Shown here piece after piece: positions 1,635 through 64,000 of a DNA stretch of 64,000 bases. The first letter of the stretch is position 1; each line of letters starts with the position of its first letter. The translations under genes were made by a program, and so were the position numbers. The stretch comes from a virus: the IMG/VR virus record IMGVR_UViG_3300030422_000020; one strand, 5' to 3'. The notes under the pieces are model-generated. The model was not told where the DNA came from. It saw only the letters and a program-made list of their open reading frames with translations, and ran no database searches.

Positions 1635-1640
1635 TAGGAG

Positions 1641-2033: not shown

Positions 2034-2035
2034 AT

Positions 2036-2860: not shown

Positions 2861-2872
2861 GTGGTGATGTAG

Positions 2873-3718: not shown

Positions 3719-3787
3719 TATAGGCAACATAAGTTAGGCTGCGTTCTAAGGAGAACATTATGTCTGAAACATCAGAGCAATCTTTTA

Positions 3788-42659: not shown

Positions 42660-43034
42660 TTAATTATAAGACAGAAAATCAATAGCTTTCGTGCCGAGTC
42701 TTTCCACAGTCCTAGTGACATTCTGTCTTGTACAATCCATTGTATCACTAATCTCTTGATGTGTCATCCCATTTAATAGACATGATAGGATATATTTTTC
42801 ATTGTCGCTTAAACTTCTGACAAACTTACTCACCATCATGTTACCGAGAACTCGTTCATCAAAATCATAATCAATTAAAGCGTCTGGCAAATTGTCATCG
42901 AAATCTTCCAACGAACAATCACCAACATGATCGCACTCATAATCCGCATCTGATATCTCAATATCAAGACAACCATAAAAACCATAGTAGCGATCATCGC
43001 TCTCTACTGTCTGTTCCTTAAATGGCATTTCCAT
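42660..43034 (-). CDS. small HTH protein resembling sigma-70 region 4 / LuxR-type
   Basis: C-terminal LSDNEKYILSCLLNGMTHQEISDTMDCTRQNVTRTVERLGTKAIDFL. Confidence 0.45.
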   Translation of the reverse strand: MEMPFKEQTVESDDRYYGFYGCLDIEISDADYECDHVGDCSLEDFDDNLPDALIDYDFDERVLGNMMVSKFVRSLSDNEKYILSCLLNGMTHQEISDTMDCTRQNVTRTVERLGTKAIDFLSYN

Positions 43035-45731: not shown

Positions 45732-45807
45732 TGGAGCCGATGACAGGACTTGAACCTGCAACAGACTGATTACAAATCAGTTACTCTTCCAATTGAGTCA
45801 CATCGGC
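45732..45807 (-). tRNA. tRNA-Thr(UGU)
   Basis: GCCGATG tg ACTC aattggaa GAGT a ACTGA-TTTGTAA-TCAGT ctgtt GCAGG-TTCAAGT-CCTGT CATCGGC t CCA. Confidence 0.8.
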
Positions 45808-45826
45808 AATTGTACAATTGATTGTG

Positions 45827-45900
45827 TGCGCCATGTAGGATTCGAACCTACGGCCTACAGATTAGAAGTCTGTTACTCTATCCAGCTGAGTTAATGGCGC
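45827..45900 (-). tRNA. tRNA-Arg(UCU)
   Basis: GCGCCAT / ATGGCGC acceptor. Anticodon arm ACAGA-CTTCTAA-TCTGT. T arm GTAGG-TTCGAAT-CCTAC. Confidence 0.8.
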
Positions 45901-45951
45901 ACACAATCAATTGTTATATATAAAAGATATTATACCATATCTTGATATATC

Positions 45952-46036
45952 TGGTAGGGAAGAAGGGATTCGAACCCTCACGCTCTATGAGCAAGAGATT
46001 TTAAGTCTCCGATGTCTGCCATTCCATCACTTCCCC
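45952..46036 (-). tRNA. tRNA-Leu(UAA), type II
   Basis: Acceptor GGGGAAG/CTTCCCT + A + CCA. Anticodon arm GGAGA-CTTAAAA-TCTCT. Long variable arm. T arm GAGGG-TTCGAAT-CCCTT. Confidence 0.7.
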
Positions 46037-46042
46037 GAGTTT

Positions 46043-46117
46043 TGGTATCGGCTACGGGAATCGAACCCGTGTTTCCACCTTGAAAGGGTGATGTCCTAAC
46101 CGTTAGACGAAGCCGAC
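46043..46117 (-). tRNA. tRNA-Glu(UUC)
   Basis: Acceptor GTCGGCT/AGCCGAT + A + CCA. Anticodon arm TCACC-CTTTCAA-GGTGG. T arm ACGGG-TTCGATT-CCCGT. Confidence 0.75.
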
Positions 46118-46208
46118 ATTTGGTGCCGCATCTAGGTAACGCTCCTAGCCAGTCATAGACATTGGATTTACAGTCCAACCCTCGTCTTTAAAGGATTACT
46201 GCGGCAAT

Positions 46209-46285
46209 TGGTGGACACAGTAGGATTTGAACCTACGACCTTATGCGTGTAAAGCATCTGCGCTAACCAGCTGCGCCATGCGTCC
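46209..46285 (-). tRNA. tRNA-Val(UAC)
   Basis: Acceptor GGACGCA/TGTGTCC + A + CCA. D arm GCGC-agctggtta-GCGC. Anticodon loop TTTACAC. T arm GTAGG-TTCAAAT-CCTAC. Confidence 0.75.
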
Positions 46286-46286
46286 G

Positions 46287-46362
46287 TGGTGGAGTCGGTG
46301 AGAATCGAACCCACGACCTTGGGATTAAAAGTCCCCTGCTCTTCCGACTGAGCTACGACTCC
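46287..46362 (-). tRNA. tRNA-Lys(UUU)
   Basis: Acceptor GGAGTCG/CGACTCC + A + CCA. D arm GCTC-agtcggaa-GAGC. Anticodon loop CTTTTAA. T arm GTGGG-TTCGATT-CTCAC. Confidence 0.8.
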
Positions 46363-46366
46363 ATTA

Positions 46367-46441
46367 TGGTGGGGGATGAGTGAGTTGAACACTCTTCTAG
46401 AGCTTATAAGGCCCTTGCCCTAACCGTTGTGCGAATCCCCC
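46367..46441 (-). tRNA. tRNA-Ile(UAU) (AUA reader)
   Basis: Acceptor GGGGGAT/ATCCCCC + A + CCA. Anticodon arm AGGGC-CTTATAA-GCTCT. T arm GAGTG-TTCAACT-CACTC. One D-stem mismatch. Confidence 0.6.
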
Positions 46442-46472
46442 ATAGCCATTATAATAGACGGTAACGTTCCAT

Positions 46473-46553
46473 TGGCAGTGGCAAGATTTGAACTTGCATA
46501 CAGGAGCTACCTGTTTTGCCCATTAAAGCATAGCGTATACCGATTTCGCCACA
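46473..46553 (-). pseudogene. tRNA-like element (type II architecture) with a disrupted anticodon arm
   Basis: Good acceptor (GGCGGTG/CACTGCC), T arm GCAAG-TTCAAAT-CTTGC and variable-arm hairpin CAGG-TAGCT-CCTG. No 5-bp anticodon stem can be drawn in ATGCTTTAATGGGCAAAA. Confidence 0.3.
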
Positions 46554-46559
46554 CCGCCA

Positions 46560-48329: not shown

Positions 48330-48438
48330 ATGCTCCTCTCAAGAAGTGTGTTGTGAAATATTTAGAATATAGCAATACTTCACAACACTAAGATATTAGC
48401 ACCAAACCATATCATTTGCATCATATAAAATATTCCAT

Positions 48439-49380
48439 CTAAGAAGAGAAAATATCTATATGCCCTTTGACCATTTCCCTAAAGTTCCGCACTGGCGTAT
48501 CGCACATGCTGCGCTTCAATTCATCTGAAATTATTCCATTCACTTTTCTATCCTTGTTATTGTCCGCAAAGGCATCTTTGATATTTATTCCACACTTGTC
48601 TAATTCCAATGTTATCCTATGCATTATTCCACTCACATATATCTGTAGCGGCAACAGATTATATCCAACATAGTTCTTAGATATATTCCGCAACAGCCTG
48701 TAGTAGCTGAACCTATAAGAATATTCCGAACTGCCTTTGCGATTCTCCACCTTGAAACAGCTGTCTTCATGCAATCCGACTATTGGTATCTTGCATGTCC
48801 CATACCTGTTCCGTCTTTCCCATATATCAATTTCGCTCAGCTTAATCAAATCATCGGCTAATTTTTCCGATATAGATATATCATACGGCTCACCATTATC
48901 GGGCTTTAACGTTGCTCCATCCCACCATATATTTTCCGCTCTAAGGTTCTTCACAACGCTCATATCATCGTTATAGATACCTTCATATAGGCTTCTAAAT
49001 AGTGTCTGTATATAGAATCCGTTATAGTCCTCATACATTCCTATATCATGGTATATCTTTTCAAACTGCGCATTGGAAATAAATTTCTTAGAAGCATTTG
49101 GTTTGGCTAATGACCAAAGAATATTCCGATCCAAGTCATTCAACATATATTCCATATCTTTATTGTCAAGATATTTGGCATACAAACCAAGGATATATAT
49201 AATAGTCGTTATAGCCTTTGGGCTATTAGGATTCATTCCTAATATAATATTTTGCAAATCAACAGGTGTGCAATTTGAATAATCATATTCGCCTATAACA
49301 CATAATGATTTAGCCACCTTTGCCGTGTTATCGGAATCAAATGTCTGTATAAAGTCATCAAAATTTTTCCGCAAAGACAA
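48439..49380 (-). CDS. hypothetical protein (313 aa)
   Basis: Long ORF. No recognisable motif. Confidence 0.45.
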   Translation of the reverse strand: MSLRKNFDDFIQTFDSDNTAKVAKSLCVIGEYDYSNCTPVDLQNIILGMNPNSPKAITTIIYILGLYAKYLDNKDMEYMLNDLDRNILWSLAKPNASKKFISNAQFEKIYHDIGMYEDYNGFYIQTLFRSLYEGIYNDDMSVVKNLRAENIWWDGATLKPDNGEPYDISISEKLADDLIKLSEIDIWERRNRYGTCKIPIVGLHEDSCFKVENRKGSSEYSYRFSYYRLLRNISKNYVGYNLLPLQIYVSGIMHRITLELDKCGINIKDAFADNNKDRKVNGIISDELKRSMCDTPVRNFREMVKGHIDIFSS

Positions 49381-49482
49381 GCGCTCCCTTCTCTTAGTTT
49401 TGTTTTACCACTCCAACACTCTTCAATATCTAAGATTATAATAAACAAAGGCGACTGTCAAAAAACAACCGCCTTATATCAA

Positions 49483-49677
49483 TTACTTTGCGTATGCCGC
49501 TACTGAAATTTTTCCGTATAACTGTTCAGCCTTGCTCACATAGTAATCAAGATTTTCCATCTTCTTGACTATAGTTTTATTATCAACGCCACTCTCAATA
49601 TCTTTCCAGTACAAATCCCAGTCAAATACCATGTTGGTAATGTCTTTTTTCCGACCAAACAGACCCATGATACTCAC
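49483..49677 (-). CDS. hypothetical protein (64 aa)
   Basis: Small ORF directly downstream of the recombinase gene. Confidence 0.3.
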   Translation of the reverse strand: MSIMGLFGRKKDITNMVFDWDLYWKDIESGVDNKTIVKKMENLDYYVSKAEQLYGKISVAAYAK

Positions 49678-49683
49678 CTTTCA

Positions 49684-50493
49684 TTAAATAAAATCATAAC
49701 CAAGCTCAAGACTGTCGAACACGTCTTTGATTTCATCATCCATAATGCCGATGTATTTTCGTGTAGTAGCTACGCTGCTATGATTGAACACATAGCTTAG
49801 AATGACAAGCGCCTTATCCTTATCTTCCGCATCGTGCCATGCCCTAAAGCCGAATGATTTCCTCAAGGAATGGCTACCGATATTCTGGTTAATCCCAGCT
49901 TCCTTAGCTGCGTTCTTGATAATACGCCAAAGAGTAGTAGCTGCAATAGCGCCGTCACCCTCACGGGATTTAAACATATACTCGTTTAAATTATCCGCAG
50001 GGAACTCATTAAGGTGCTCTACAATAACTTTCTTCACGGTGTTATTAAAGAACAACTTGACAAACTTCTTCTGCTTACGTGTTTTTTTAGGTTGCAAAGT
50101 ATAGAAGTCCTTAAACTTATACTCCCCGTCCTCAACACCGTCCAAGAAGAAACTCCATTTAAGCGTAATCAAATCGCTTGCACGCAGACCGACATTGATA
50201 CCAATAACGAACAGCAGCTTGTTCCGACTGGCAAGCTGACGATGGTGTTCATCGGTAGCTTCATTGATATGCTTGTCAAACACATCAATCATAGACTTAA
50301 TCTCTTCATCGGTACGGAAAGCATACACCTCAGAAGATACACCAGCAGGCTTTAATCCACCGCTATTATCACGAGCCTTCGGACTTTTAGGCTTAACATC
50401 TTTAGTGCCAATGATAACACTAAACGGAATGATATTGTTCTGCTGCTTTTCTTCCACAACAACTGGCGCAAATGCTGGACTAGCCATTATCAA
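49684..50493 (-). CDS. small tyrosine recombinase (catalytic domain only, 269 aa)
   Basis: GINVGLRASDLITLKW (box I Arg), GSHSLRKSFGF (H-x-x-R) and HSSVATTRKYIG (the catalytic Tyr region). Confidence 0.7.
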   Translation of the reverse strand: MIMASPAFAPVVVEEKQQNNIIPFSVIIGTKDVKPKSPKARDNSGGLKPAGVSSEVYAFRTDEEIKSMIDVFDKHINEATDEHHRQLASRNKLLFVIGINVGLRASDLITLKWSFFLDGVEDGEYKFKDFYTLQPKKTRKQKKFVKLFFNNTVKKVIVEHLNEFPADNLNEYMFKSREGDGAIAATTLWRIIKNAAKEAGINQNIGSHSLRKSFGFRAWHDAEDKDKALVILSYVFNHSSVATTRKYIGIMDDEIKDVFDSLELGYDFI

Positions 50494-50585
50494 TCCCTTC
50501 CTCTCGTCTTTCTTTACTATATTCTACCTTATATCAATGTAGTTATCAAGTAGTTAGCTCATATTTTTGCAGTCAATTTTGAAAA

Positions 50586-50616
50586 TAAAAAAGGGTGGAA
50601 CTATAAATGTTCCACC
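50586..50616 (-). terminator. rho-independent terminator
   Basis: GGGTGGAAC-tataaat-GTTCCACCC with a flanking A-run (a T-run on the minus strand). Confidence 0.6.
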
Positions 50617-50643
50617 CGTCTATTATAACCTATATACAAGGTA

Positions 50644-50862
50644 TTATTCTTCTAAATCAAGATCCAACTTATTCTTTTCAAACTTAATACGAAACTCACC
50701 ATTCGCAAATTGTCGCATAAGAATCTCTAGCACCGTATTCATAGAGAAACCAACCTGTTTGCAATAGGCACTGAAAGCGTCTTTAACATCCTTGTCGATG
50801 GTTGTATTGAGTACAACCTTATTGTTTTCCACCATGCTAATCCCAGTCCTCGTCACGTACAC
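50644..50862 (-). CDS. ribbon-helix-helix (CopG/Arc-like) DNA-binding protein
   Basis: VVLNTTIDKDVKDAFSAYCKQVGFSMNTVLEILMRQF shows the beta-alpha-alpha pattern. It is a paralog of 51592-51801. Confidence 0.5.
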   Translation of the reverse strand: MYVTRTGISMVENNKVVLNTTIDKDVKDAFSAYCKQVGFSMNTVLEILMRQFANGEFRIKFEKNKLDLDLEE

Positions 50863-51049
50863 GGGTCGATTTCACAGCTACAAAATCATCGCACCACGAA
50901 TCATCATCCAAGTATACAATCTCCCACTCATGCGCCTTGCAATAGCCTGCTTCATCGTCCTGCACCTCAAAGCCATTATCAAACGGCTCGCAATTACGAC
51001 AGTTAGCGCAGCAGCGTGGATGAATCTTAGACATTTTTTCTCCTAACAA
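50837..51049 (-). CDS. hypothetical Cys-rich protein (70 aa)
   Basis: CCANCRNC...CKAHEW. Confidence 0.3.
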   Translation of the reverse strand: MLGEKMSKIHPRCCANCRNCEPFDNGFEVQDDEAGYCKAHEWEIVYLDDDSWCDDFVAVKSTRVRDEDWD

Positions 51050-51391
51050 TTAGTACAAATCAAACTCACGAATGAAATAACATGAATTATTATATGGATA
51101 TTCCTCGTCATATGGCACATGCCACTCTATATATTCTCCACCATATCCGTTCTCGACCTGCTTTATATAGCCGCAATCATCAAGATATTTAGCGGCATCA
51201 TCATAGCTGGAAAAGATTCTATCTATGTCTTGATAGTTATCATCATACTCTTCTCCATTATCATACCATACAACATATACCTTGTCTTTAACTGTTTGCG
51301 CCATCTTGGCAAACACATCGTCAACCTTTTCCGTTACCTCTTGTGGAATAGCAGTCGGCTCTTCCATGGTAACAAACCCAACGTTACTCAT
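51050..51391 (-). CDS. acidic hypothetical protein (113 aa)
   Basis: ORF in the array. Confidence 0.35.
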   Translation of the reverse strand: MSNVGFVTMEEPTAIPQEVTEKVDDVFAKMAQTVKDKVYVVWYDNGEEYDDNYQDIDRIFSSYDDAAKYLDDCGYIKQVENGYGGEYIEWHVPYDEEYPYNNSCYFIREFDLY

Positions 51392-51591
51392 AATTTTCCA
51401 ACCTAACTATATATATGGATAAACTCTAAAACAAGCAATGTCGTACAAAAAATAAAACAAAAGATTATAATTTTCCAGTCATCGCTATTCATACCCACGG
51501 TCTATCCTTTCTTCCGACTATCAACATACATGATACTACTTATCATATAGTTGTCAAGTAGATATTTCAAACAAAAAAGACTAGCTAAATG

Positions 51592-51801
51592 CTAGTCTTT
51601 AATATCAATCTTATTGCTCTTGCCTATCTTTAACACAAACTCGCCTGATACAAACTGTACCATGAACGTCTCCAATACCGTGTTCATAGGCATCCCAGCG
51701 CTTTTACAATGGGCTTTAAAGCTATCTAAAACGTCTTTGTTTATTGTCGTATTAAGCATGGCGCGTTCATTTTTCTGGACATTTACTTTCATACTTGACA
51801 T
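51592..51801 (-). CDS. ribbon-helix-helix DNA-binding protein (paralog of 50644-50862)
   Basis: AMLNTTINKDVLDSFKAHCKSAGMPMNTVLETFMVQF. Confidence 0.5.
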   Translation of the reverse strand: MSSMKVNVQKNERAMLNTTINKDVLDSFKAHCKSAGMPMNTVLETFMVQFVSGEFVLKIGKSNKIDIKD

Positions 51802-51941
51802 ACATAAGCACTCCTTTATATGTTACATTAGTCTAACTATATTGTATTGCATATAAAAGTAGTTATCAAGTAGATAAGAAAGCAGGGCTTAAACAGCCCT
51901 GCTAAAACGTTTTACTTTTCCGTATAAGACACGATTAAAAA

Positions 51942-52355
51942 CTAATCGTCATACTCACCATACTTGCCATTAAGCCAGTCATTAGTGGTCTTTAGCATCT
52001 GTCCAAACGTCCAATAATAAGCGCCCTCGACATATTTATTCGTGAGAACGTTGTTAATAATATCGTTCTTAGTGATAGCAAAATCGACCAGCTCGTCAAA
52101 TGAACCGTTACCATCATAGACATAGTAAGTAACCACAAACAATTCATCATCAGACAACATCATTTCATTTGTCTGTAAAGAATCAGTATACCAATCATTA
52201 CCCTTTGGATCAAGGGCAGAAGCCACGCACTCATGCTCGCCAGCACAATGCTCACTGTCAGCTACATAGACAATATCCTCAAGAACATCCTCAATCGTAT
52301 CGTCATAAGCCCAATAATCAGCATCTTCCATACTCTTGCAAATCGCAGTCAGCAT
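51942..52355 (-). CDS. acidic hypothetical protein (137 aa)
   Basis: ORF in the array. Confidence 0.35.
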   Translation of the reverse strand: MLTAICKSMEDADYWAYDDTIEDVLEDIVYVADSEHCAGEHECVASALDPKGNDWYTDSLQTNEMMLSDDELFVVTYYVYDGNGSFDELVDFAITKNDIINNVLTNKYVEGAYYWTFGQMLKTTNDWLNGKYGEYDD

Positions 52356-52527
52356 ATTATACTCCTTTTATGCGGACACTAATAAACCTGCGATAGATTA
52401 TTGCACATATTGAGCAGCGCGTCAAGGTGCCTTTGTATATCTTCTTTGAGCTTTTCTAAATCGGACTCATTCTTAATAACAAAGGCACCTTGTTTATTAT
52501 TCCAAGTGCAATACGCCGTATCACCCA

Positions 52528-53478
52528 TTAGCACTCATGCTCGGGAATATCGGGAGTAATACAAGGCTCACTGTGCATATGGTAAAGCATTGTATCATCA
52601 TCCAACACACGCTCAACATCACCATACTGAAATGCTGCAAACGCACTACGGTTGAACTCATTGTATTCGTCTGAAATCTGCTCATGCTTAATCACATTAC
52701 CGTCAGCATCAAGCAGATAGCAATTGAAAAGCTCGCCGTCCTCGTCATAGTCACTGAATACAGCGACAACCATTCCATTCTCATACTTCACAGCATAGTC
52801 ATAAGGCGTGAAATCTTCTGAAATAGTCTGTACACAATTATCAATAAAGCCATACTGATAACTGTTGTCGCCTACAAAATTGTAGTTATCATCAATATTA
52901 ACGCAAGAAAGCATGATAAGCATGAAATAAATCAGCGCGGATACGCAACGAAAATCATCTTTGATATATCCATCATACCAATCGTCCCAGTTGTTAGGCG
53001 TGAACGACACATAACCATCGTGAGAAGTATACTTCTTCTCAAGAAACTCCTCAAAGTTATCACGGTTCATGGCGGCATAGCCAAGCATATACTCACACAA
53101 TTTATCCGTATATGCAAAATCAAACAGGGTCGAATCAGTCTCAAAATTATACCACTTCGGATGATACGTACCAGTATACGTCACTTCAAAATCATCATCA
53201 TAATCAGACGGGAAAACATCCGTCCAAAGGGCATCGTTGATATAATCCACAGCGCACTTACCGATTTCATCATCAGCCTTGTCGCGCATGTCATACGGGA
53301 TACCTCCCCAAAGCTCTCCAAGATAAGTCTCGTAAAGCCCAGTGCAGATAAAGTTTCCAATGCAAGTAGTGGAAGTATGAATCGTATGGGTCATAGTCTC
53401 TTTCATCGTAGTACCTTTCTCTAAGGTTCTTTCTCTTTCATTGACTAATAGTATATATAGTTGGTAACTACATGTCAA
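52528..53478 (-). CDS. ArdA-like antirestriction (DNA-mimic) protein with C-terminal extension
   Basis: GNFICTGLYETYLGELWGGIPYD parallels Tn916 ArdA ANLGKYNEGELVGAWFTFP. YMLGYAAMNRD..GYVSFTPNN parallels YIDYQAYGRDL..GTFISTNHG. Very acidic, Asp/Tyr-rich. This rests on my recollection of the ArdA sequence. Confidence 0.4.
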   Translation of the reverse strand: MTCSYQLYILLVNERERTLEKGTTMKETMTHTIHTSTTCIGNFICTGLYETYLGELWGGIPYDMRDKADDEIGKCAVDYINDALWTDVFPSDYDDDFEVTYTGTYHPKWYNFETDSTLFDFAYTDKLCEYMLGYAAMNRDNFEEFLEKKYTSHDGYVSFTPNNWDDWYDGYIKDDFRCVSALIYFMLIMLSCVNIDDNYNFVGDNSYQYGFIDNCVQTISEDFTPYDYAVKYENGMVVAVFSDYDEDGELFNCYLLDADGNVIKHEQISDEYNEFNRSAFAAFQYGDVERVLDDDTMLYHMHSEPCITPDIPEHEC

Positions 53479-53621
53479 CTATATTTCAAGTTCATATTTC
53501 CTCCACAAAAAATATCACGCCTTATAGACGGCAACACAATGAAAGGAAAGAAAGTGAGAAAAGGCGTGGGATAGTGTTGCCGCCTATGAGACGTGATATT
53601 ATATATTCCAACATGGCAAGG

Positions 53622-53849
53622 CTATAGGTTGCACCAAAAGTCATCTTCGGTAAACTCTGTACCTTGGTAAAGATTATACATCAGCCAATCTGGAATATCC
53701 GTAGGGTATGTCGCGCTTGCCAAAACATTACGTTCAGTAGCAATCATCGGCGGCAATGCGTCTTGATTGTAATAAAAATCAGTATATAGCTTGTCTTTAA
53801 GCTCATACATTTCATCATCACTAAGCTGCTCAATCTTCATGGCAACCAC
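53622..53849 (-). CDS. hypothetical protein (75 aa)
   Basis: ORF in the array. Confidence 0.3.
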   Translation of the reverse strand: MVAMKIEQLSDDEMYELKDKLYTDFYYNQDALPPMIATERNVLASATYPTDIPDWLMYNLYQGTEFTEDDFWCNL

Positions 53850-53883
53850 CTTTCTAAGCTATTGTAATACGATTTAAGACACG

Positions 53884-54246
53884 CTAATCCCAAGCGCGTG
53901 TACCGAACTCAACCTTATCCCAGCCACCCATTAAAAAGGCGTACATCCATCCATCAACGATAAAACACGCCTTCATCGGGTTGCTCTTATGGTCTTTCGC
54001 TTCATCCTCGTAATAAACATTTACGATATTCACGATACCCATACTTTGCAAATGCAACAGTGCCTTGCGTACATTGCTGCATAGCTTTTCATCGCCAATA
54101 GCTTTTGCAAGCTCGCTATACGTACCCTCGAAAACATCCATCTTCATAAGGTAATCCATGATACGTACTTCTTGTTTGGTCAACTCACGAAACTTACGCA
54201 TAAGGGTATAAGTCTCGTCATAGTTAAAGCCCATAGTATCAGCCAA
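53884..54246 (-). CDS. putative winged-helix DNA-binding protein (120 aa)
   Basis: TYSELAKAIGDEKLCSNVRKALLHLQSMGIV is HTH-like. Confidence 0.35.
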   Translation of the reverse strand: MADTMGFNYDETYTLMRKFRELTKQEVRIMDYLMKMDVFEGTYSELAKAIGDEKLCSNVRKALLHLQSMGIVNIVNVYYEDEAKDHKSNPMKACFIVDGWMYAFLMGGWDKVEFGTRAWD

Positions 54247-54271
54247 TGTTATATTCTTTCAATTAGAGTTA

Positions 54272-54688
54272 CTAGAACTCACGGTTGCGTTTGCCTTTAA
54301 GAAAATCAATCTGCTTATTATTCAAGCCATCAAACTTAGATTCATCCAAATGATAATTTGGATGCTGATAAACGACAACCTTGTCAATGGTAATCTTCAC
54401 AATATTTCCATCAAGAATACTAGGGCCGCCAATGGAGCGACTGTTATTAATCAACAAAGGAATCTTAAAGTTGCCACAACTGCGGCTAACGTAACCAATA
54501 GTATCAAAGAACTCGCACCAGTCGCGTCCAGTTTCAGTATCTCCATAGAAAACACGAATACGCTCATGGTTCTTCATTGCGCCATCAAGAATCTGAATGA
54601 CCCTATCGGGCGTATCAAACCAATACCAAGTATCATTGTAGACCTTGTAACGCTTACCATCACATTCTTTAACCTGAATGTCCATCAC
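54272..54688 (-). CDS. hypothetical protein (138 aa)
   Basis: ORF in the array. Confidence 0.35.
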   Translation of the reverse strand: MMDIQVKECDGKRYKVYNDTWYWFDTPDRVIQILDGAMKNHERIRVFYGDTETGRDWCEFFDTIGYVSRSCGNFKIPLLINNSRSIGGPSILDGNIVKITIDKVVVYQHPNYHLDESKFDGLNNKQIDFLKGKRNREF

Positions 54689-54828
54689 AGTTCCTTTCTC
54701 GTCTGCTCTTTCCTTGTCTATATAATATCAAAGATTTATTCCATATAGACGAGAACCTTTACCTTCACAACATCAACACAATTAACTACGTGTTTCAATT
54801 GTCTGATTTTTTCCGACAACCGAAACAA

Positions 54829-54856
54829 AAAAGCGCCCCATAACAGGGGCGCTTAG
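54829..54856 (-). terminator. rho-independent terminator
   Basis: GCGCCCC-ataaca-GGGGCGC with a flanking A-run. Confidence 0.6.
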
Positions 54857-54862
54857 ATTGAG

Positions 54863-55606
54863 CTATCGTCTAACTGGCATAACCATTCCGAAACAGCTAC
54901 GCTCATTCTTATAATCGCTTGTCATAAACTCCATAGCGCGTCCCTCAAGACCCATCATAATCTGAATAGGCGTGCTTTTTCCGTATGCAAGTTTCACAGC
55001 AGCGCAAATATCAGCCATATAATCAGCGTTTACCCATGCGCTATATCCTTGATGAACGGTTCCGTCATTATCGCGTTGCGATTCAATGATGCGTTTATAG
55101 TCGATATACTCCCATCCAAACTTAGATAGATTATCAAACCCGACAACATCACGCAACCAATTATCAGACTTTTTCTGTTGATAGATATGCGCTGTTAAAT
55201 TATCTGCATCACCATCATAGTCAATAGTCACGCAACTATCAGTTGACTTTACATACTTCTTTACATCTTCAACATAGAGAAGGAAATCGGCGTTATGCTT
55301 TTCTGAAACATCGGCGGCATCGTAATTAACCTTATGCTCAAACTCGATCAGCTTATACCCATCACTGCCGACAATCGTATATTTGTCGTAGCGAACTTTG
55401 ATAAGCAGACACTTGCACCAGCTACGAATCTGGTCTTTATCATAGGCAAGACGAGCAGCTGCCAAAAGTTCTTTTGCATCCAAAGTAACGAGCATTGCAA
55501 TTCCTTCCGTCTGGTTTGCTCCATGGTTTAATAGTATCACGATTATGGCTACAACATATTTTCTCCATATAGTTTTCCACAAAAGAAAAGGGGAGCACAT
55601 ATGCAC
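54863..55606 (-). CDS. hypothetical protein (likely start at MLVTLDAKE ~55498)
   Basis: The ORF's first 36 codons look non-genuine. AGACGGAAGGAATTGCA precedes the internal ATG. Confidence 0.4.
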   Translation of the reverse strand: MHMCSPFLLWKTIWRKYVVAIIVILLNHGANQTEGIAMLVTLDAKELLAAARLAYDKDQIRSWCKCLLIKVRYDKYTIVGSDGYKLIEFEHKVNYDAADVSEKHNADFLLYVEDVKKYVKSTDSCVTIDYDGDADNLTAHIYQQKKSDNWLRDVVGFDNLSKFGWEYIDYKRIIESQRDNDGTVHQGYSAWVNADYMADICAAVKLAYGKSTPIQIMMGLEGRAMEFMTSDYKNERSCFGMVMPVRR

Positions 55607-55783
55607 TCCCCTAATCCGCCTGAAAGAACCACCAATCAGACACCAACCACATTCATACCAACACCAAACAAAAGGCGGTATGCAACATAAAAGCTAGTTC
55701 GTTTTTGTTCCGTATCATTTATGTTGTACCAACATTGTAATAAGCTGATGCGTAGCTGTCAAGTAGTTTTCAAAACTTTTCCG

Positions 55784-56284
55784 CTAATTTTTAGCGCCGA
55801 TATACCCAAGGTTGACAAGCGTATTGTGCATACTACGGTAGCGATGCACATTTACGTAGCTCGACACAGCACCATAAGGACTAAGCCCCTTGTATTGATT
55901 TTTTTGAGGGAAATATTCCACCACGGTATCACGCTTGTACACGATAGTCTTTTTACGATTGATTGTCATACCATAGGGATGGAACACAAACGTGTTATTA
56001 TCTTCCGTGTGAACAATCACGTTAGTTCTCAACAAATCAAACACATCTTTAATACGATGCTCCGTAATATAGAGATACCCAGCGATACTATCATCCGTTG
56101 ACTTAAAGCGATACCACGTCTTTTGATTCTTCACAATAGGTACGTCGTACTCAACATCACCGATGAACCTGTATCCCTGCTTGCACTTTTTCCGAATCTC
56201 GTCAACATCAGAATAGTCAGCGACCCAAATGTTACCATCGACAAACATATGAAACCTTTCCGTCTCGTGGTTTTCTTTATCCAA
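55784..56284 (-). CDS. hypothetical protein (166 aa)
   Basis: ORF downstream of the triple operator. Confidence 0.4.
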   Translation of the reverse strand: MDKENHETERFHMFVDGNIWVADYSDVDEIRKKCKQGYRFIGDVEYDVPIVKNQKTWYRFKSTDDSIAGYLYITEHRIKDVFDLLRTNVIVHTEDNNTFVFHPYGMTINRKKTIVYKRDTVVEYFPQKNQYKGLSPYGAVSSYVNVHRYRSMHNTLVNLGYIGAKN

Positions 56285-56802: not shown

Positions 56803-57179
56803 GTTCTCACCTTTCGTCTGGTGCTTTACCTTGGTTATATAGTACCAAAGATTTTCCGTGTGTAATTGAGAATATCCGTCTCCACAGTTTCTCCATACAA
56901 TGATAGTCGGTCTGTATGGTGTAATTTTCCGCGTTGTCTTTGGTCGTGTATTTTGACGTTGTGTACCCCATTCTCAAAAGGGTCGTTTTATAGGCTTAGA
57001 GCGTCTTATTTGACCCTATTTGCCCCGATAAGCACTCGACCCTAGCAAGTACCCATAGAGAAAATATCGGGGGTAAATAGGCGCTATATCGCGTATAAAA
57101 TGCAATGCCATATATTCCAAAGACTAGACAAAAAAATAGGGACTAGATACCCAGTCCCTATAATGTTTACGTTGATTAA

Positions 57180-57761: not shown

Positions 57762-57886
57762 TAGACTATCCCTTCTGTTGGCGTTCTCTTTCCTTGTCTA
57801 TAGAATACCATAATATGTTGTCGTTCACATTATCTTCACATATTATATTGAATCAATAAAGACGGTATTGCTATAGCATTGATTGT

Positions 57887-58105
57887 TTACAAGTCAACAA
57901 TCAAATTGTGTTCTTTGATAAGCCGCCTTGCAATGCAAGGGTTAATATGCTTCTTTTTCGCCAGCACGATAGTACCGCTGCCGTCCTCGCGCTTATAGAT
58001 ACAGTGGTCGCCAGTACACCGCACATAGGCATACCCATTGCGCTTGACAATCTTAGTCATCTCTAGGTAGGTGTACTGCCGCATTTTCGCCATTGCTTTT
58101 CCCAA
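57887..58105 (-). CDS. HicA-family toxin-like protein (72 aa)
   Basis: YTYLEMTKIVKRNGYAYVRCTGDHCIYKREDGSGTIVLAKKKHINPCIARRLIKEHNL matches the HicA pattern (..GfelvrqkGSHhvy.hpdg...tvP.H...dl..g.lrkIlkq). Confidence 0.55.
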   Translation of the reverse strand: MGKAMAKMRQYTYLEMTKIVKRNGYAYVRCTGDHCIYKREDGSGTIVLAKKKHINPCIARRLIKEHNLIVDL

Positions 58106-58195
58106 TCTCTAGTGGTCTTTGACTTGATATAAATATATCATATACTGTTGTATATAGTGGTAATTCATATAATCTACACATATATATTGACAAAG

Positions 58196-58218: not shown

Positions 58219-58510
58219 TTAATCTCTGCTAGGCTACCATGATAATATCGAATTGCTCAATACCATCAAGAAGATACCAATCACATGCGTCATATAAAGC
58301 CTTCACGTCCTCGGGTGCATCGCCCCAAGTGCCACTATAGACCTCCTTGCCGCTCACGTAGGCAATAACCTTCTGCTCGTCTTGAATATCCATCTTCTTA
58401 CCTTTCTGCTGTTATCAACCCATCGGGCTTATCCCCTTTGGTTGATATTATTATTGCACTGATAGAGTCTATGAGTATCGAGAATCTTTAACTTCACAAA
58501 GTCTACACAT

Positions 58511-58798: not shown

Positions 58799-58873
58799 TG
58801 TTCAGCCTTTCTTCTGGTTTCCTTTGTTGATTAAAGGATACCATAGTTTTGCCGTGTTCACGTTATCTTCACA

Positions 58874-59168: not shown

Positions 59169-59228
59169 TGATTAAATAGTACCACGGTTTACTCGTCTCC
59201 ATAGTATCTTCACATAACTATATCTAGA

Positions 59229-59340: not shown

Positions 59341-59439
59341 ATAGTTTTAGGTTGTGAGATTGTGATTCCCAGATTCATAAGTTCTTCACAAATGAATACA
59401 CAAAAGAAAAGCGCCCACCTTTTCAGTGAGCGCCAGAAT

Positions 59440-59700: not shown

Positions 59701-60045
59701 TTTGTGCCGCCCTTCTCGCGTGCTTTTCTTGTTGGTTAGATAGTACCACGATTCAAGCGCCTACATACTTTCTTCATATATTGTTTTTTATGCTGTCCAG
59801 CTTTTGTTGCTTAGGTTGTCCGTTAAATGCGCTAGGGTAGTCCAGCCGCATTTGCCGCTACAAGCCCGCCAGATTCGATTTAAGGGCTGTTAAATGATTG
59901 TCGGGTATAAGTTATCCAGCCAGAAAATATAAGGGCTTAAAACGGCTTACAGTGCTTTATATTCTGTTGTCGATATTGATACTGAATTAGTAGCATTTAA
60001 AGACAAGAAAATAGGGGAACGTTACCGCTCCCCTTTGGTAGTCGC

Positions 60046-60561
60046 TTAATTAAAAAGCGCTTGAATAATCTTCAAATCGTCCTCGGGAATATCCCAGTAA
60101 AGCCAACCGCTACCATAGGTGTAAGGCTTGCCGTTATGTTCAACCTCATAAAGTCCAACGCTTTTAAGGTACTCGCAAGCGCTAGTATAATCGTAGCGAT
60201 TCCCCTTCGACTCCCAGTCCTTAATCGCTTCTTCCTGCTCGATAGTGCCAGCGTGCATATCGTTTAGGTGGTACAGTTTCCACAGACGGCAAATCTCCAT
60301 GAACTGTTTGTTCTTAGTGCGCTTTGCGATTGAATCTAGGCATTGACCGCCAGCAACGGTATCGGTTTTTGACTGATTGTAAACCATGCCCATAGCAGAA
60401 AAGCAGGGCTTGCCGTCCTTTACCGTCAACTCAACCTCGACGGTGACGGGGTTAATCTTACGACCACGACCATAGTAGTCAATCTTGCCAAAATCAAAAG
60501 TCTTAGTAGCCAACGTTCTTTCCTTTCCTTGTGGTTGGTTTCTGTACTTATAATTTATCAC
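60046..60561 (-). CDS. hypothetical protein (171 aa)
   Basis: ORF with an upstream motif. Confidence 0.4.
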   Translation of the reverse strand: MINYKYRNQPQGKERTLATKTFDFGKIDYYGRGRKINPVTVEVELTVKDGKPCFSAMGMVYNQSKTDTVAGGQCLDSIAKRTKNKQFMEICRLWKLYHLNDMHAGTIEQEEAIKDWESKGNRYDYTSACEYLKSVGLYEVEHNGKPYTYGSGWLYWDIPEDDLKIIQALFN

Positions 60562-60615
60562 TTATTGAATCGAGATTGTCGAGAATCTTTTCCATCACAG
60601 TATCAACACAATTAA

Positions 60616-60645
60616 ACATAGATAAAAAAAGAGCGGCTAAAAGCC
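60616..60645 (-). terminator. rho-independent terminator
   Basis: A7 followed by GAGCGGC-taaa-AGCCGCTC. Confidence 0.5.
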
Positions 60646-61011
60646 GCTCGGGGTGTCAAAGATTTTGCCGTTCTCATCACTAGGATAGTTGTCCTGCATT
60701 AGTTCCGTCCAGCTCGGTTCGCCCTCGTCACTGTAAGTATAATCTTCTTCCTCGTCCTCGTAATTGCTCACATGGACAAGTCCAGTGTTATCCTCGGTAA
60801 ACTCCATGTTCCAGTTATCGGCGATGGTGTTGAGCGTATCTCCAAGCTCCTTATCGTTGAGTTCATAGGCAAACTCGATAGCCAAGAGCTTGTATCCCAG
60901 CTCATTCACAAGTGCCGAAAACTTCCGCGTGTTCGTCTCGTTCATGGCTCGTCCTTTCGATTGGTGCCTTTCGTTAGTTATATATTGCCATAGTTCCACG
61001 CCAGATAGCAC
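60637..61011 (-). CDS. acidic hypothetical protein (124 aa)
   Basis: ORF. Copy 2 of the 110-bp element lies upstream. Confidence 0.4.
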   Translation of the reverse strand: MLSGVELWQYITNERHQSKGRAMNETNTRKFSALVNELGYKLLAIEFAYELNDKELGDTLNTIADNWNMEFTEDNTGLVHVSNYEDEEEDYTYSDEGEPSWTELMQDNYPSDENGKIFDTPSGF

Positions 61012-61056
61012 GACAATACATACCTACATATTTTCTCCATACAATCATACACAACT

Positions 61057-61170
61057 AAAAGTTCCACCTAGCTAACTTTAAAAAGTACAGAACTGTAGAG
61101 AACGTGTAAGTCATAATAGGTGGGCTATGTTCGGTGCCTTTGTCCCTCCGACTGATTACATATTATCATT
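61057..61170. repeat. 110-bp conserved intergenic element, copy 2
   Basis: Aligned by hand to 59229-59340. Confidence 0.5.
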
Positions 61171-61199
61171 TATCCGTGGCGTGTGCGATTCTATCCAGC

Positions 61200-61740
61200 A
61201 AAGCGCTATCTTTTCCGTAGCATTTTCCGCAAAAAAAAGAGCAGATATTTAATCCGCTCCATTTTTCCTAACCGAAAATGTTCCAAATATCCGCAGGGTA
61301 TCCAGTCGCCAAGCACACCAAAAAGCAGAAGAGTCTTACCGCAAAGATTCCAACAGCTCCACAAATAATTCCAGTTAGAACCTCCCTACCGTCTTTGGTA
61401 TTCGCCCAGTCTACGATTTTCCGAAACATTTTTCCGCCCTTCCAGTTGGTTTCGCGTACTACTCCATTTTAGCGCGTTTCGGTATTTTCCAGTCTGTAAT
61501 TTTCCAGTGTGTTAGTTTTCCACAGTTTCTCCATATCCCAGTCTAGTATTTATCCATGAAACTTCCATCAAATCTCCATAGCTTTTCCATCAGATGCACA
61601 TAAAATCTCCATCAAAGCTCCACATACTCTCCACATTTTCTCCATAACTATGGATCGCACACAAAATCTCCACATTTTCTCCACGAAAAAATTATAGAAT
61701 CTCCATAACTTTTTCCATAAAAAAAGGGGAACTCGGGATA
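61200..61740. repeat. dense array of more than 20 short TTTTCC(A/G) and (A/C)TCTCCA(T/C)A repeats
   Basis: Examples: cttttccgtag, cattttccgc, gattttccgaaac, tttttccgccc, tattttccagtc, aattttccagtg, gttttccacag, then aatctccatagcttttccatcag..aatctccatcaaagctccacatactctccacattttctccataac..aatctccacattttctccacg..aatctccataactttttccat. Confidence 0.6.
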
Positions 61741-61750
61741 GAGTTCCCCT
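61721..61750 (-). terminator. rho-independent terminator
   Basis: A6 followed by GGGGAACTC-gggata-GAGTTCCCC. Confidence 0.6.
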
Positions 61751-61758
61751 AATTCTAG

Positions 61759-62253
61759 TTAGTATTCGGGACTTTCCCAATACCAGTAGTGTATGGTCGC
61801 TTCGTTCATAATAGCACATGCAACATCGGTTGCCGAAAAATCGCTATTGTCGTCAATGTCGGTGTGCTCGTATATGTCTTTTGCGATATGCTCCACAACG
61901 TCAAGATATTTGCCGCTATCGTCCTCGATAGTTTCGTTATCGCGGACAAAATCGAGCATATGCCCATATGCAACGCCACTACCAGCGTTATACCAGTCGC
62001 GTTTAATGCACATGTTCATGATGCTTTTTGGTGACGTATTCCAGCAGTAGTGGCGCAGCGCGTTACGTGTATCGTTCATGATTGTACCCTTCTTTTTGGT
62101 TGGTTGGTTGGTTGGTGTGAGCGTGCATAGTTTCGCACGCTCACACCTTGCCGCTATCTGATATAGCGGTATCCCAGTTCGGGCGCGTGTACGGCAGGCG
62201 AAAAATCGCTCATACCGTTTGCGTACAGTGCGCATTGTATGGCAGTGTAGCAC
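61759..62253 (-). CDS. hypothetical protein (probable start at the internal MNDTRNALRH, ~62082)
   Basis: The N-terminal 57 codons of the track ORF are low-complexity and overlap the next gene. Confidence 0.4.
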   Translation of the reverse strand: MLHCHTMRTVRKRYERFFACRTRARTGIPLYQIAARCERAKLCTLTPTNQPTKKKGTIMNDTRNALRHYCWNTSPKSIMNMCIKRDWYNAGSGVAYGHMLDFVRDNETIEDDSGKYLDVVEHIAKDIYEHTDIDDNSDFSATDVACAIMNEATIHYWYWESPEY

Positions 62254-62417
62254 ATCTCACCGTACCCGTCCAAAACCGCCTTCCGCTCACGCACGAACTG
62301 ATAGCGGGTCTGGTTGGGCATATCGTTGCGCCAACGGGCTAGAATGCGCCCGTTGCGGCGATTAAGGCGGATGCAAACGCGCCCTTCACTGTCCAGTGTC
62401 TCATAGAACTTTACCAT
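62154..62417 (-). CDS. hypothetical protein (87 aa)
   Basis: ORF in the array. Confidence 0.35.
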   Translation of the reverse strand: MVKFYETLDSEGRVCIRLNRRNGRILARWRNDMPNQTRYQFVRERKAVLDGYGEMCYTAIQCALYANGMSDFSPAVHAPELGYRYIR

Positions 62418-62488
62418 AATCTTTCCCCTCCTGGCTGATTGCTATCTGATAGGTTTCAATTGTAGGCTATCCCCATAGCTGATAGTAG

Positions 62489-62869
62489 TTATGCAATAGG
62501 CGAGCAATAGTTATAGGTAGGCGTGATATATGCAAACGTGAGTTCATCGGTTGCGGGGTCGCGGAACATGAAACCACACGTAAACATAAATGTGTTGTAG
62601 CTGATGATACGGAAATCGTAGCCGTCATACTTTAGCATGAGGTTGCGGCAATACGCATATGCGCGCGCTTTCTTGTCGCTATAGCGTCCATACACGTCTA
62701 TGAGTTGCGTATCATCGCTACGAGTGTACCGCTGATACATATCATCGAGCTTGTGGGCGCGGACGCAGGTGAAATCTTGCACGAAATCGATAGTTAGGTT
62801 AGGCATGGTATCCCCTTTCGTTTTGGGGATAGCCCACGATTGAAACCTATCGGGCAGGACGCAACACAT
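62489..62869 (-). CDS. hypothetical protein (126 aa)
   Basis: ORF in the array. Confidence 0.4.
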   Translation of the reverse strand: MCCVLPDRFQSWAIPKTKGDTMPNLTIDFVQDFTCVRAHKLDDMYQRYTRSDDTQLIDVYGRYSDKKARAYAYCRNLMLKYDGYDFRIISYNTFMFTCGFMFRDPATDELTFAYITPTYNYCSPIA

Positions 62870-62895
62870 GCGGCGCTCACGCCTACGGATGGATA

Positions 62896-63396
62896 TTATA
62901 GGTTGGCGAGTTTGTCGAGGTCGAGCTTTACGTATTCGGTGAACCTATACGTATCGCCCTCCTTTACGACAACGTAGCGAATAATCGGCGTGGTGAACAT
63001 ATCGGGCTGATGGGTGGCATATGCCATGATAGGCATAAACCACGTGCCAGTGGCGCGGATAGACCACATATAGCCGCCTTTATCGTTCATGTGGTGCAAC
63101 ATGCTCTTATAGTCGAGTAGGACATCGCTCTGATAGTGGATACCGCCACACCGCTTAATGGTATCTGCAATGAAAATGTGAAGTTCATCGGCGGTAACGG
63201 TATAGTTCGTCATAGTGGTATCGGCAACGGTAACGGTGTGCTTAACGTACATAGTAAACTCCTTAAATAGTGGTTTTAGGTGGTTGACGTGTAGGCATAA
63301 GCGCCGTTTGTGTTGCGTCCTATATTTTAATATGCGGTTCTCAAGGTTCGAGATAGCTTCCCTATAGTCTTGCAATGGCTTATCAGTTTGACCCAC
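62896..63396 (-). CDS. hypothetical protein (166 aa)
   Basis: ORF in the array. Confidence 0.4.
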   Translation of the reverse strand: MGQTDKPLQDYREAISNLENRILKYRTQHKRRLCLHVNHLKPLFKEFTMYVKHTVTVADTTMTNYTVTADELHIFIADTIKRCGGIHYQSDVLLDYKSMLHHMNDKGGYMWSIRATGTWFMPIMAYATHQPDMFTTPIIRYVVVKEGDTYRFTEYVKLDLDKLANL

Positions 63397-63649: not shown

Positions 63650-64000
63650 ATAGCTATATTAAATGCATAAAACAGGTCGATATATACAAAAACGCGCATA
63701 CTTAAGGTTCAAGTTTAGGTTTAAGGTTTTGGGGTCGATATGCAAAAAAACGCATAAAACAGGGCTGTTTTAACGAAAATTTGCATAAATTGCAGTTTGT
63801 TTCTAGTATTAGGTTTGTTGAAAACTTTGTTGTACAACTTTTTTTGTTGAAAACTCTGTTGAAAAGTCATGGATCTGTTGAAAAGTTGTTGAAAACTCTG
63901 TTGAAAACTATTTAATGGTATTAGATATGTTGAAAACCTGTTGAAAACTCTGTTGAAAACTATTTAATGGTATTAGATATGTTGAAAACCTGTTGAAAAC
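63650..64000. repeat. repeat-rich non-coding region: GCATAAAACAGG and TCGATAT direct repeats, then tandem 52-bp units built from GTTGAAAAC 9-mers, running off the window edge
   Basis: ctgttgaaaac-tctgttgaaaac-tatttaatggtattagatat-gttgaaaac occurs twice consecutively (63889-64000). At least 10 GTTGAAAA(C/G) copies lie in 63820-64000. Confidence 0.6.

Follow-up and report, generated by a model that had tools for sequence, protein, structure and literature searches.

We describe here a tandem array of an 11-bp repeat in the early region of a large phage, recorded in IMG/VR as IMGVR_UViG_3300030422_000020, together with the other places in the same DNA where the repeat unit recurs. The stretch of 64,000 nucleotides that was analysed, referred to as the window, covers the early and replication half of the phage genome, and the array lies near its right end on the minus strand. 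Our preferred reading, to which we give a little less than an even chance, is that the array is a tandemly amplified cluster of candidate operators, which would offer a landing pad, a roadblock or a reservoir to a regulator of the MrpR/SroF type. A landing pad is favoured because the unit of the array is the same element that lies over the -35 region of at least nine early promoters, and because a putative repressor of that type is encoded in the window. The coordinates of the features are collected in Table 1.

The units of the array are arranged head-to-tail, all on the transcribed strand, and can also be written as TRTGGA(G/A)AWWT. Eighteen TGGA cores lie between 61717 and 61441; eight of the 17 spacings between them are 11 bp, three are 22 bp, and the rest are 12, 15, 16, 23, 25 and 28 bp. 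The dense tandem block is the promoter-distal part (61556-61719); in the proximal part (61433-61545) the spacings are 15-25 bp, and the order of the units is kept in relatives. A few units are decayed (TATAATTTTTT, TGTGTGCGATC and TATGTGCATCT). The Fourier power of TCCA at 10-11.5 bp reaches 0.31 in the array, which is the maximum of the 64-kb window (99th percentile, 0.05), and the pairwise distances between cores fall into two registers about half a helical turn apart. The units are nearly free of C, 55% of them read AUGGA at the RNA level, and the T before GGA is invariant. One irregular step of 28 nt, made of a unit, a decayed unit, six further nucleotides and TATGG..., has the layout of a promoter cassette. 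With its flanks, the array has a GC content of 0.41-0.42, near the window average, and no AT-rich block is visible in it. A TATAAT inside the array (61693-61698) was considered as a promoter and rejected, as it is not conserved in relatives.

An earlier note on this DNA had described a 540-bp array at 61200-61740, with more than 20 copies of two related 7-9-mers at an irregular spacing of 8-25 bp. Repeats are indeed present there above chance: for TCTCCAY the window has 30 copies where 15.4 are expected, 8 of them within 61528-61706, and for TTTTCCR it has 45 where 20.5 are expected, 9 of them within 61211-61717. The number of copies depends on how they are counted, since exact matches to the two motifs come to 17, and the figure exceeds 20 when degenerate copies of the TCCA core are included (25 at 61197-61717). 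The two motifs proved to be variants of a single 11-bp unit, which becomes apparent when the minus strand is read, and the spacing is not irregular, being made mostly of 11- or 22-bp steps and giving the strongest 10-11.5-bp periodicity in the window. The extent has to be narrowed to 61433-61719, since 61200-61430 is taken up by a 53-aa gene that the note had overlooked, the terminator of this gene and a few scattered motif copies. The note was correct in calling the open reading frame (ORF) at 61568-61819 spurious, with an EKMWR repetition that stems from the array, and in placing a terminator beside the array; the T-run of this terminator is found on the minus strand only.

The unit is not confined to the array. 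Before at least nine other early genes it recurs as tandem pairs, sometimes as triplets, all of them in the sense orientation. The pair at 56897 begins with 17 bases (TATGGAGAAACTGTGGA) that are identical to array positions 61535-61519. A two-unit pattern in the 11-bp register, BRTGDARNNNNBRTGDA, was found 23 times against 2.4 expected, on the minus strand only; 15 of the copies lie outside the array, nine of them in consecutive gaps that precede early genes at 56.9-61.0 kb. A position weight matrix (PWM), trained on the arrays of relatives only, picked up six pairs outside the array against 0.8 expected and none on the other strand, the best being those at 56897 and 61041.

These pairs are held at fixed distances from what follows them. 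Measured from where the pair starts, the distance to TGG(T/C)A-TAT clusters at exactly 30 nt (14 cases) and at 50-51 nt (another 14) across the window and 12 family loci, so that the two classes differ by two helical turns; the sequences of the spacers vary and the spacing is kept. We take TRTGG-TAYTAT to be an extended -10 promoter of the Gram-positive "-16 TRTG" type. The unit-pair promoters have no TTGACA or other -35 hexamer, and the units would sit at about -45 to -24, or on the same face of the helix two turns further upstream. The promoter cassettes probably arose by duplication.

Table 1. Positions of the array, its flanking elements, the promoter unit pairs and the candidate repressor gene in the window
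Feature	Position	Strand	Remarks
Repeat array	61433..61719	-	18 TGGA-core units, consensus T(A/G)TGGA(G/A)A(A/T)(A/T)T, mostly in 11-bp register
Intrinsic terminator hairpin AGGGGAACTCTATCCCGAGTTCCCCT	61725..61750	-	terminator scan; T-run to about 61720
53-aa gene, small single-pass membrane protein (MFRKIVDW...)	61268..61429	-	conserved in all relatives
Intrinsic terminator closing the array and small-gene module	61238..61260	-	terminator scan; conserved in relatives
Remnant with two CGGAAAA copies and TGGATAG	61197..61232	-	remainder of a region present in most relatives
Promoter pair TATGGAGAAAA TATGTAGGTAT	61020..61041	-	51 nt upstream of TGGCAATAT (extended -10), gene 60637-60945; PWM score 15.0
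Promoter pair TATGAAGAAAG TATGTAGGCGC	59757..59778	-	exactly 30 nt upstream of TGGTACTAT
Promoter pair TGTGAAGAACT TATGAATCTGG	59369..59390	-	49 nt upstream of TGGTATTAT
Promoter pair TGTGAAGATAC TATGGAGACGA	59193..59214	-	exactly 30 nt upstream of TGGTACTAT
Promoter pair TGTGAAGATAA CGTGAACACGG	58852..58873	-	30 nt upstream of TGGTATCCT
Promoter pair TGTGTAGACTT TGTGAAGTTAA	58488..58509	-	just after a terminator, upstream of gene 58229-58393
Promoter pair TGTGTAGATTA TATGAATTACC	58159..58180	-	upstream of HicA-like gene 57887-58105
Promoter pair TGTGAAGATAA TGTGAACGACA	57819..57840	-	30 nt upstream of TGGTATTCT
Promoter pair TATGGAGAAAC TGTGGAGACGG	56876..56897	-	50 nt upstream of TGGTACTAT; PWM score 17.0
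313-aa protein with MrpR/YopR/SroF-type (tyrosine-recombinase-fold) repressor structure	48439..49380	-	AlphaFold (AF2) model and Foldseek

The array belongs to a module that is kept well beyond this one phage. The succession of terminator, array, small ORF and terminator was found in about 22 distinct related phage contigs from the human gut, in which the array has typically 18-26 units, with 12 in L001, 33 in L136 and only 2 in L131. The upstream hairpin, which closes the operon at 61759-63396, directly precedes the array in all relatives, and in the window the array begins 0-2 nt past its T-run. The constant partner on the downstream side is the 53-aa gene, whose ribosome-binding site abuts the last unit. 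Its conservation, together with the distribution of variable sites over the three codon positions (23/16/43), indicates that the gene is real, even though no Pfam family was found for the protein and a profile of the ORF had no match in 185,579 species genomes. The array region itself gave no blastn match among 50,697 phage records.

The units can be matched one by one as orthologues across genomes, and the arrays differ by insertions or deletions of 11, 22 or 33 bp. Such variation could be that of a functionless minisatellite, in which a promoter element with an 11-bp internal repeat has been expanded by slippage or unequal recombination and is simply tolerated. The copy number of 2-33 and the indels in multiples of the unit are in keeping with such an origin, and so are the decayed units, the 34-nt hairpin that is inserted within the array of L135, and the virtual loss of the array from L131. 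In the latter, the upstream terminator hairpin is followed by two units (28 nt) and then by the start codon, with the last unit overlapping the Shine-Dalgarno sequence, while the promoter unit pairs are retained. The explanation nevertheless looks quite improbable to us, since the non-core positions have diverged strongly and the TGGA core has been kept. In orthologous columns, the core is off-consensus in 4.3% of cells compared with 11.6% for the non-core positions (Fisher p = 8e-13), a comparison in which the aligner may favour matching cores; 25% of core columns are variable compared with 42% of the others (p = 0.0017), and the rate of change of the core is about 2.7 times lower than that of the other positions. 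We regard the constraint on the core, as read from these alignments, as an indication of purifying selection rather than proof of it. In addition, orthologous units can be recognised across many relatives from independent metagenomes, which argues that the array is old and maintained.

The candidate reader of the units is the 313-aa protein listed in Table 1. An AlphaFold model was obtained for it (predicted local distance difference test, pLDDT, 90; predicted template modelling score, pTM, 0.80), and the top seven matches of this model in a Foldseek search of the PDB are YopR, MrpR and SroF structures, with E of about 1e-8. The TM-score to DNA-bound SroF is 0.66, and these seven matches rank above Cre, the Tn1549 integrase and XerH. 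The resemblance is one of fold: sequence identity to YopR, MrpR and SroF is only 11-14%, a search of the PDB by single sequence and by profile found nothing, and PHROG gave only a weak integrase-like match. Many of the 469 homologues at E ≤ 1e-5 match PF22823 (MrpR_C_cat), weakly. Tyr is absent from the last ~65 residues of the protein, and 31 homologues share no invariant Tyr beyond position 237. By analogy with the repressors of this fold, it is the leading candidate for a protein that would bind the units. Besides this gene, the window has three tyrosine-recombinase genes that are apparently catalytic, all on the minus strand (1-725, 5197-6393 and 49684-50493).

Direct repeats at a spacing of 10-11 bp that lie, as the units do here, over the -35 region of promoters without a -35 hexamer are familiar from the Pho boxes of PhoB in E. 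coli and from the TTGC-N6-TTGC site of lambda CII, and the ToxR heptads at ctxAB are an example of variable tandem promoter repeats whose copy number can differ between strains. Sites of these kinds number 2-8, as against 18-33 in the arrays described here, and their reader is an activator with a winged-helix or CII fold. An analogy can also be drawn with the SPbeta family of Bacillus phages and its master repressors MrpR (YopR) and SroF, which read the elements SPBRE (SPbeta repeated element) and Phi3TRE; our phage, too, would be a large temperate phage of the Firmicute type with a repressor of the tyrosine-recombinase fold. In SPbeta, the copies of SPBRE that MrpR binds lie at about 10 early promoters, that of the small toxin gene spbT among them (PMC10516654). 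Our phage similarly has an asymmetric element, here in the form of 22-bp pairs, at about 10 early promoter regions, and it also has it before a gene for a small membrane or toxin protein. SroF acts as a monomer on an asymmetric box of 24-26 bp, places two helices in successive major grooves and has many genomic sites (bioRxiv 10.1101/2025.11.27.690993). A monomer footprint of about 24 bp over two major grooves matches one pair of units, and a 22-bp asymmetric pair with two TRTG one turn apart, present at many promoters, is what one would expect of a SroF-like target. There are differences as well. The sequences of the elements are unrelated to those of SPbeta and phi3T, the proteins are as distant as stated above, the element here is built of 11-bp sub-repeats, and 18-33 tandem copies at one locus are not described in either of the two reports (PMC10516654; bioRxiv 10.1101/2025.11.27.690993).

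A second analogy comes from the stoperators of cluster A mycobacteriophages, which are read by repressors of the L5 gp71 type. Stoperators are numerous asymmetric sites for a monomeric repressor, found in promoters and short intergenic gaps with an orientation that follows the direction of transcription, and a block of elongation has been proposed for them (PMC9283540). The array and the promoter pairs share the asymmetry, the large number of candidate sites and the fixed orientation, and stoperators may be regarded as the closest functional analogue of the array. The repressor of the stoperators, however, has another fold, the sites are dispersed single 13-mers rather than tandem copies, and the hosts belong to another phylum. 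Taking the two analogies together, it is possible, if not quite an even bet, that the array is an operator set of the SPbeta or stoperator type which in this phage family has been amplified in tandem.

Such an array would act at the level of the DNA, as a dock with many sites for the protein that reads the promoter units. In the ordinary early cassettes, two or three head-to-tail units (22-33 bp) would lie over roughly -45 to -24; here, the same unit would have been multiplied to 18 copies (2-33 in relatives), behind the terminator of the first operon and before the gene of the small membrane protein. If a repressor monomer with a footprint of about 24 bp takes up one pair of 11-bp units, full occupancy of the 287-bp array would require roughly a dozen monomers. 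Loaded in this way, the array could block read-through from the apparently accessory upstream operon into the lytic early genes and silence the small membrane protein in the lysogen, and it might store repressor that would have to be stripped off before induction. The anatomy and conservation of the array, the slower change of its core, the fixed geometry of the shared unit at promoters and the fold of the candidate repressor were observed; both the binding of a protein to the units and the function of the array are what we infer. A more specific proposal, which we consider unlikely, is that the array serves as a decoy or reservoir of the lysogeny master repressor, with 10-15 monomers parked per genome copy and a roadblock behind an operon that is expressed in the lysogen; the number of units (2-33) would then tune the silencing of early genes and the threshold of induction.

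If this were true, the lysis-lysogeny switch of these phages would include a built-in titration device that can evolve rapidly. The amplification of an operator to 18-33 copies would be a natural case of regulation by the number of sites, through a roadblock or through titration, and the differences in copy number among close relatives would amount to an evolvable dial on prophage silencing and induction. Repressors of the MrpR/SroF type have been characterised only between 2023 and 2025, and only in SPbeta-like phages of Bacillus; judging from the window, human-gut phages of a family with genomes of roughly 130 kb may use a repressor of the same fold, with a candidate operator made of 11-bp sub-repeats. 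It also cautions that a repeat array in a phage is not automatically an origin or a pac site.

Several observations weigh against the operator reading. The PWM trained on arrays recovers only three of the nine promoter pairs, and the promoter units are mostly TGTGAAGA or TGTGTAGA while the array fixes a G (TGGA), so the two sets are related and not identical. The promoter cassettes look paralogous, and part of the fixed 30-nt geometry could have been inherited rather than selected. The array is dispensable, because L131 does without it. The link between the repressor and the unit is one of analogy; the unit does not resemble the phi3T box, CAGTAATTTTATTTTTATTCTTAATG, in sequence, and phages with a repressor homologue of 51-65% identity lack the unit-pair cassettes. 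The window has genes for further candidate DNA-binding proteins, namely one of 124 aa with a GerE/sigma-region-4 domain (42660-43034) and two paralogues that are weakly RelB-like (ribbon-helix-helix), and beyond the window the product of a divergent 312-aa gene with a weak winged helix-turn-helix signal is another candidate reader. Finally, unit-like repeats cluster in AT-rich, origin-like control regions, TGTTGAAAAC in the window and TGTGGAAAACT in the distant phage L149, which makes a Rep-like reader possible. Co-variation of operator and repressor was sought in the distant phages L149 and L150, where the cassettes are lacking and other repeats are present.

A Rep-like reader would belong to a plasmid-like prophage, in which the array could be the target of an initiator, with copy-number control by titration or handcuffing as at incA, the centromere for a ParR-type adaptor, or the origin itself. 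The tandem direct repeats of P1 incA and R1 parC (11-bp repeats in the latter) are near the helical period, are dispensable or tunable, and load many copies of a protein. The array resembles them in being made of direct tandem repeats near the helical period, in clusters of ~10-11 bp as in parC, and dispensability and a variable copy number would suit a control locus. It differs from them in having no rep or par gene beside it, in sharing its unit with promoters, and in lying between terminators within a transcription unit. It has no constant neighbours other than the two terminators and the small membrane-protein gene; no replication or partition family was detected in the flanking genes at 60046-63396, and no rep/par family (parM, parA or tubZ) was found among the window ORFs scanned. 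In favour of a plasmid-like life, the closest annotated relative by DnaE is the plasmid-named Clostridioides phage pCD1602_4, and large C. difficile phages of that kind are described as plasmid-like and reported to be extrachromosomal, with parM-like genes (PMC5786514). An incA-like auxiliary iteron array is, in our view, the strongest rival to the operator cluster and yet improbable, as is an origin or a centromere; all of them leave unexplained why the unit stands at a fixed distance from the -10 element of at least nine promoters.

With respect to an origin in particular, the cumulative GC skew, a check proposed in the earlier note, has its minimum at about 61750-62000, which would speak for it; this minimum, however, coincides with a gene block of odd composition that is swapped out in relatives. 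At a GC content of 0.41 there is no AT-rich unwinding element, and the helicase, primase and polymerase genes are 30-45 kb away. Nor can the array be an essential origin, because L131 has no array proper, keeping only 2 units where others have 12-33. A packaging (pac) site was another suggestion of the note. A scan of the larger window ORFs detected no terminase and so gives no reason to put such a site at the array; the ends of the relatives' contigs scatter 1-11 kb away from it. Of the three possibilities that the note had named, the regulator landing pad is thus the one supported, by the units at the early promoters and the protein of the MrpR/SroF fold; the origin and pac readings are poorly supported.

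The position of the array invites an explanation at the level of RNA, according to which it would form a long, C-poor and unstructured 5' leader of the small-protein mRNA whose repeated (A/G)UGGA motifs bind an RNA-binding protein that recognises GGA, in the manner of a CsrA-like sponge or repression, or 30S subunits as a standby site or mRNA stabiliser. All units are in the sense orientation directly 5' of the ribosome-binding site, which in L131 the last unit even overlaps, and the scarcity of C and the frequent AUGGA fit the ANGGA motif. The region downstream of the module in relatives is full of CACGGAAAA motifs behind consensus promoters. The fold z-score of -3.0 might be added here; we ascribe the structure to complementarity between A-runs and U-runs, and a conserved fold is incompatible with the 11-nt indels among relatives. 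Against an RNA element stand the strong terminator before the array, the lack of a conserved sigma-A promoter in or before it, and the positioning of the unit relative to -10 elements elsewhere, which is a property of DNA. CsrA does not require the invariant T before GGA, only the 55% of units already mentioned are ANGGA, no CsrA homologue was found in the phage, and Rfam gave no match, neither the window region nor the longer L002 locus yielding anything near threshold. A CsrA sponge was accordingly rejected except as a minor rival, and we hold an RNA-level role in general to be decidedly doubtful.

The units also have some similarity to DnaA boxes, and the array might then be a datA-like sink for host DnaA or a DnaA-dependent origin. 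The reverse complement of TTTTCCACA is seen in units such as TGTGGAAAA, TRTGGARAA resembles TGTGNAWAA, the 11-bp spacing known from low-affinity DnaA arrays would result from a 9-mer plus 2 bp, and one perfect relaxed box is present at 61516-61524. That box is the only one in the array, and the window has six relaxed boxes (TTWTNCACA) against 9.9 expected. The critical C8 position pairs correctly in 31% of units and has the wrong base in 55%, and the T position of the strict box holds T in 2%. On the relaxed-box counts and the unit PWM we rejected the DnaA reading, which we consider very unlikely indeed.

Between 5197 and 63396, nearly every gene of the window is on the minus strand, among them genes for a DnaE-type polymerase, a DnaB-like helicase, a primase, NrdD, an RNA ligase, several tyrosine recombinases, a YopX homologue and a HicA-like toxin, as well as 8 tRNAs. 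By DnaE, the closest annotated relatives are phage pCD1602_4 (51% identity) and 160-kb siphophages of Bacillus. The relatives of the array locus come from human-gut metagenomes, with contigs that reach 126-133 kb. The 8 tRNA genes form a cluster at 45732-46559 on the minus strand, and one of them has an abnormal two-base anticodon ("tRNA-???" in ARAGORN). The plus-strand genes at 918-4573 have no family matches.

The operon upstream of the array (61759-63396) is the first leftward one and has four genes, a GC content of 0.47-0.51, and a GC skew that is zero or positive; in L001, unrelated genes stand in its place. With its odd composition and this replacement it looks like a mosaic accessory block, to which the local minimum of the cumulative GC skew can be traced. 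A (CCAA)n tract of 4-6 copies was found at 62085-62105 of the window, at 1425-1445 of L001 and at 585-612 of L002, in each case in the leader position directly 5' of a ribosome-binding site, with genes that are otherwise different.

The remnant at 61197-61232 is what the window phage has of an ORF-poor, ACGGAAAA-rich region of 0.8-1.8 kb that is present in most relatives. In L002 it extends over 1560-3400, following the terminator of the small gene, and it is found also in L001, L003, L004 and L129-L133; it has more than 40 same-strand (A/T/G)CGGAAAA(A/T) motifs, AT-rich blocks and consensus promoters CGGAAAAtctaTTGACA, and had no match in Rfam. The window and L127 are without nearly all of it, which corresponds to a deletion of about 2 kb. 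A hairpin element with a GCAA loop, TCAAC(A/G)CGCAAG(C/T)GTTG, is scattered through the L131, L135 and L003 loci; L131 has it at about 3500-3570 and 5290-5350, with three tandem copies among its occurrences, and L135 within the array. In L140 (1-1300), the small-gene region is joined to unrelated DNA about 60 nt upstream of the start codon, either through chimeric assembly or through rearrangement.

A second class of promoters, distinct from the unit-pair class, occurs at 48400-55800 on the minus strand, with a conserved -35 region CTACTTGA(C/T)AACTAC and a -10 of the form TA..AT; examples are upstream of 51391, 51801, 50493 and 55606. The motif YGGAAAA, with 41 copies on the minus strand and 4 on the plus strand, is roughly tenfold enriched at 45-57 kb, often just past the T-runs of terminators or just before TTGACA.

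Other repeat arrays were seen in this phage and elsewhere. One of them, TGTTGAAAAC(T/C), lies at 63790-64000 on the plus strand and runs off the end of the window, with at least nine copies at 11-12-bp spacing. Its continuation can be followed in the 99%-identical relative L125 (1-2900), which has four copies of ACTAACCCCC, about 1 kb of AT-rich DNA with CTGTATCAGAGATATAAAA repeats, and then three TTGTCCACGTTTTTTGTGGACAA palindromes upstream of a divergent 312-aa gene with a weak winged helix-turn-helix signal (MarR_2, E = 0.024); the half-site GTGGACAA of the palindromes is close to the unit. Taken together with this continuation, the right end of the window resembles an origin or a master control region more closely than the array does. 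Homology between the divergent genes of this type in L125 and L149 was not demonstrable (E = 0.008). In L149, whose repressor homologue is 51% identical, TGTGGAAAACT occurs seven times at 9490-9640, partly as tandem pairs, in an AT-rich gap of 1.1 kb about 400 nt upstream of the MrpR/SroF-like gene; the same sequence is found at 61524-61514 of the window. A wide scan for TGGAR at 11-bp spacing returned mostly unrelated short arrays in other phages. Among about 30 other viral contigs of 30-35 kb (L009, L017, L043, L060 and others) and in L028 (4511-4590), TGGAGT(T/A)(T/A)(T/A)(C/T)T is present in 6-8 copies at 11-bp spacing; in L028, the one locus looked at more closely, the array comes directly after the stop codon of a 141-aa ORF, which by eye is similar to late regulators of the ArpU type, and just before TATATAAT. 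Arrays of this type may be activator sites of late promoters.

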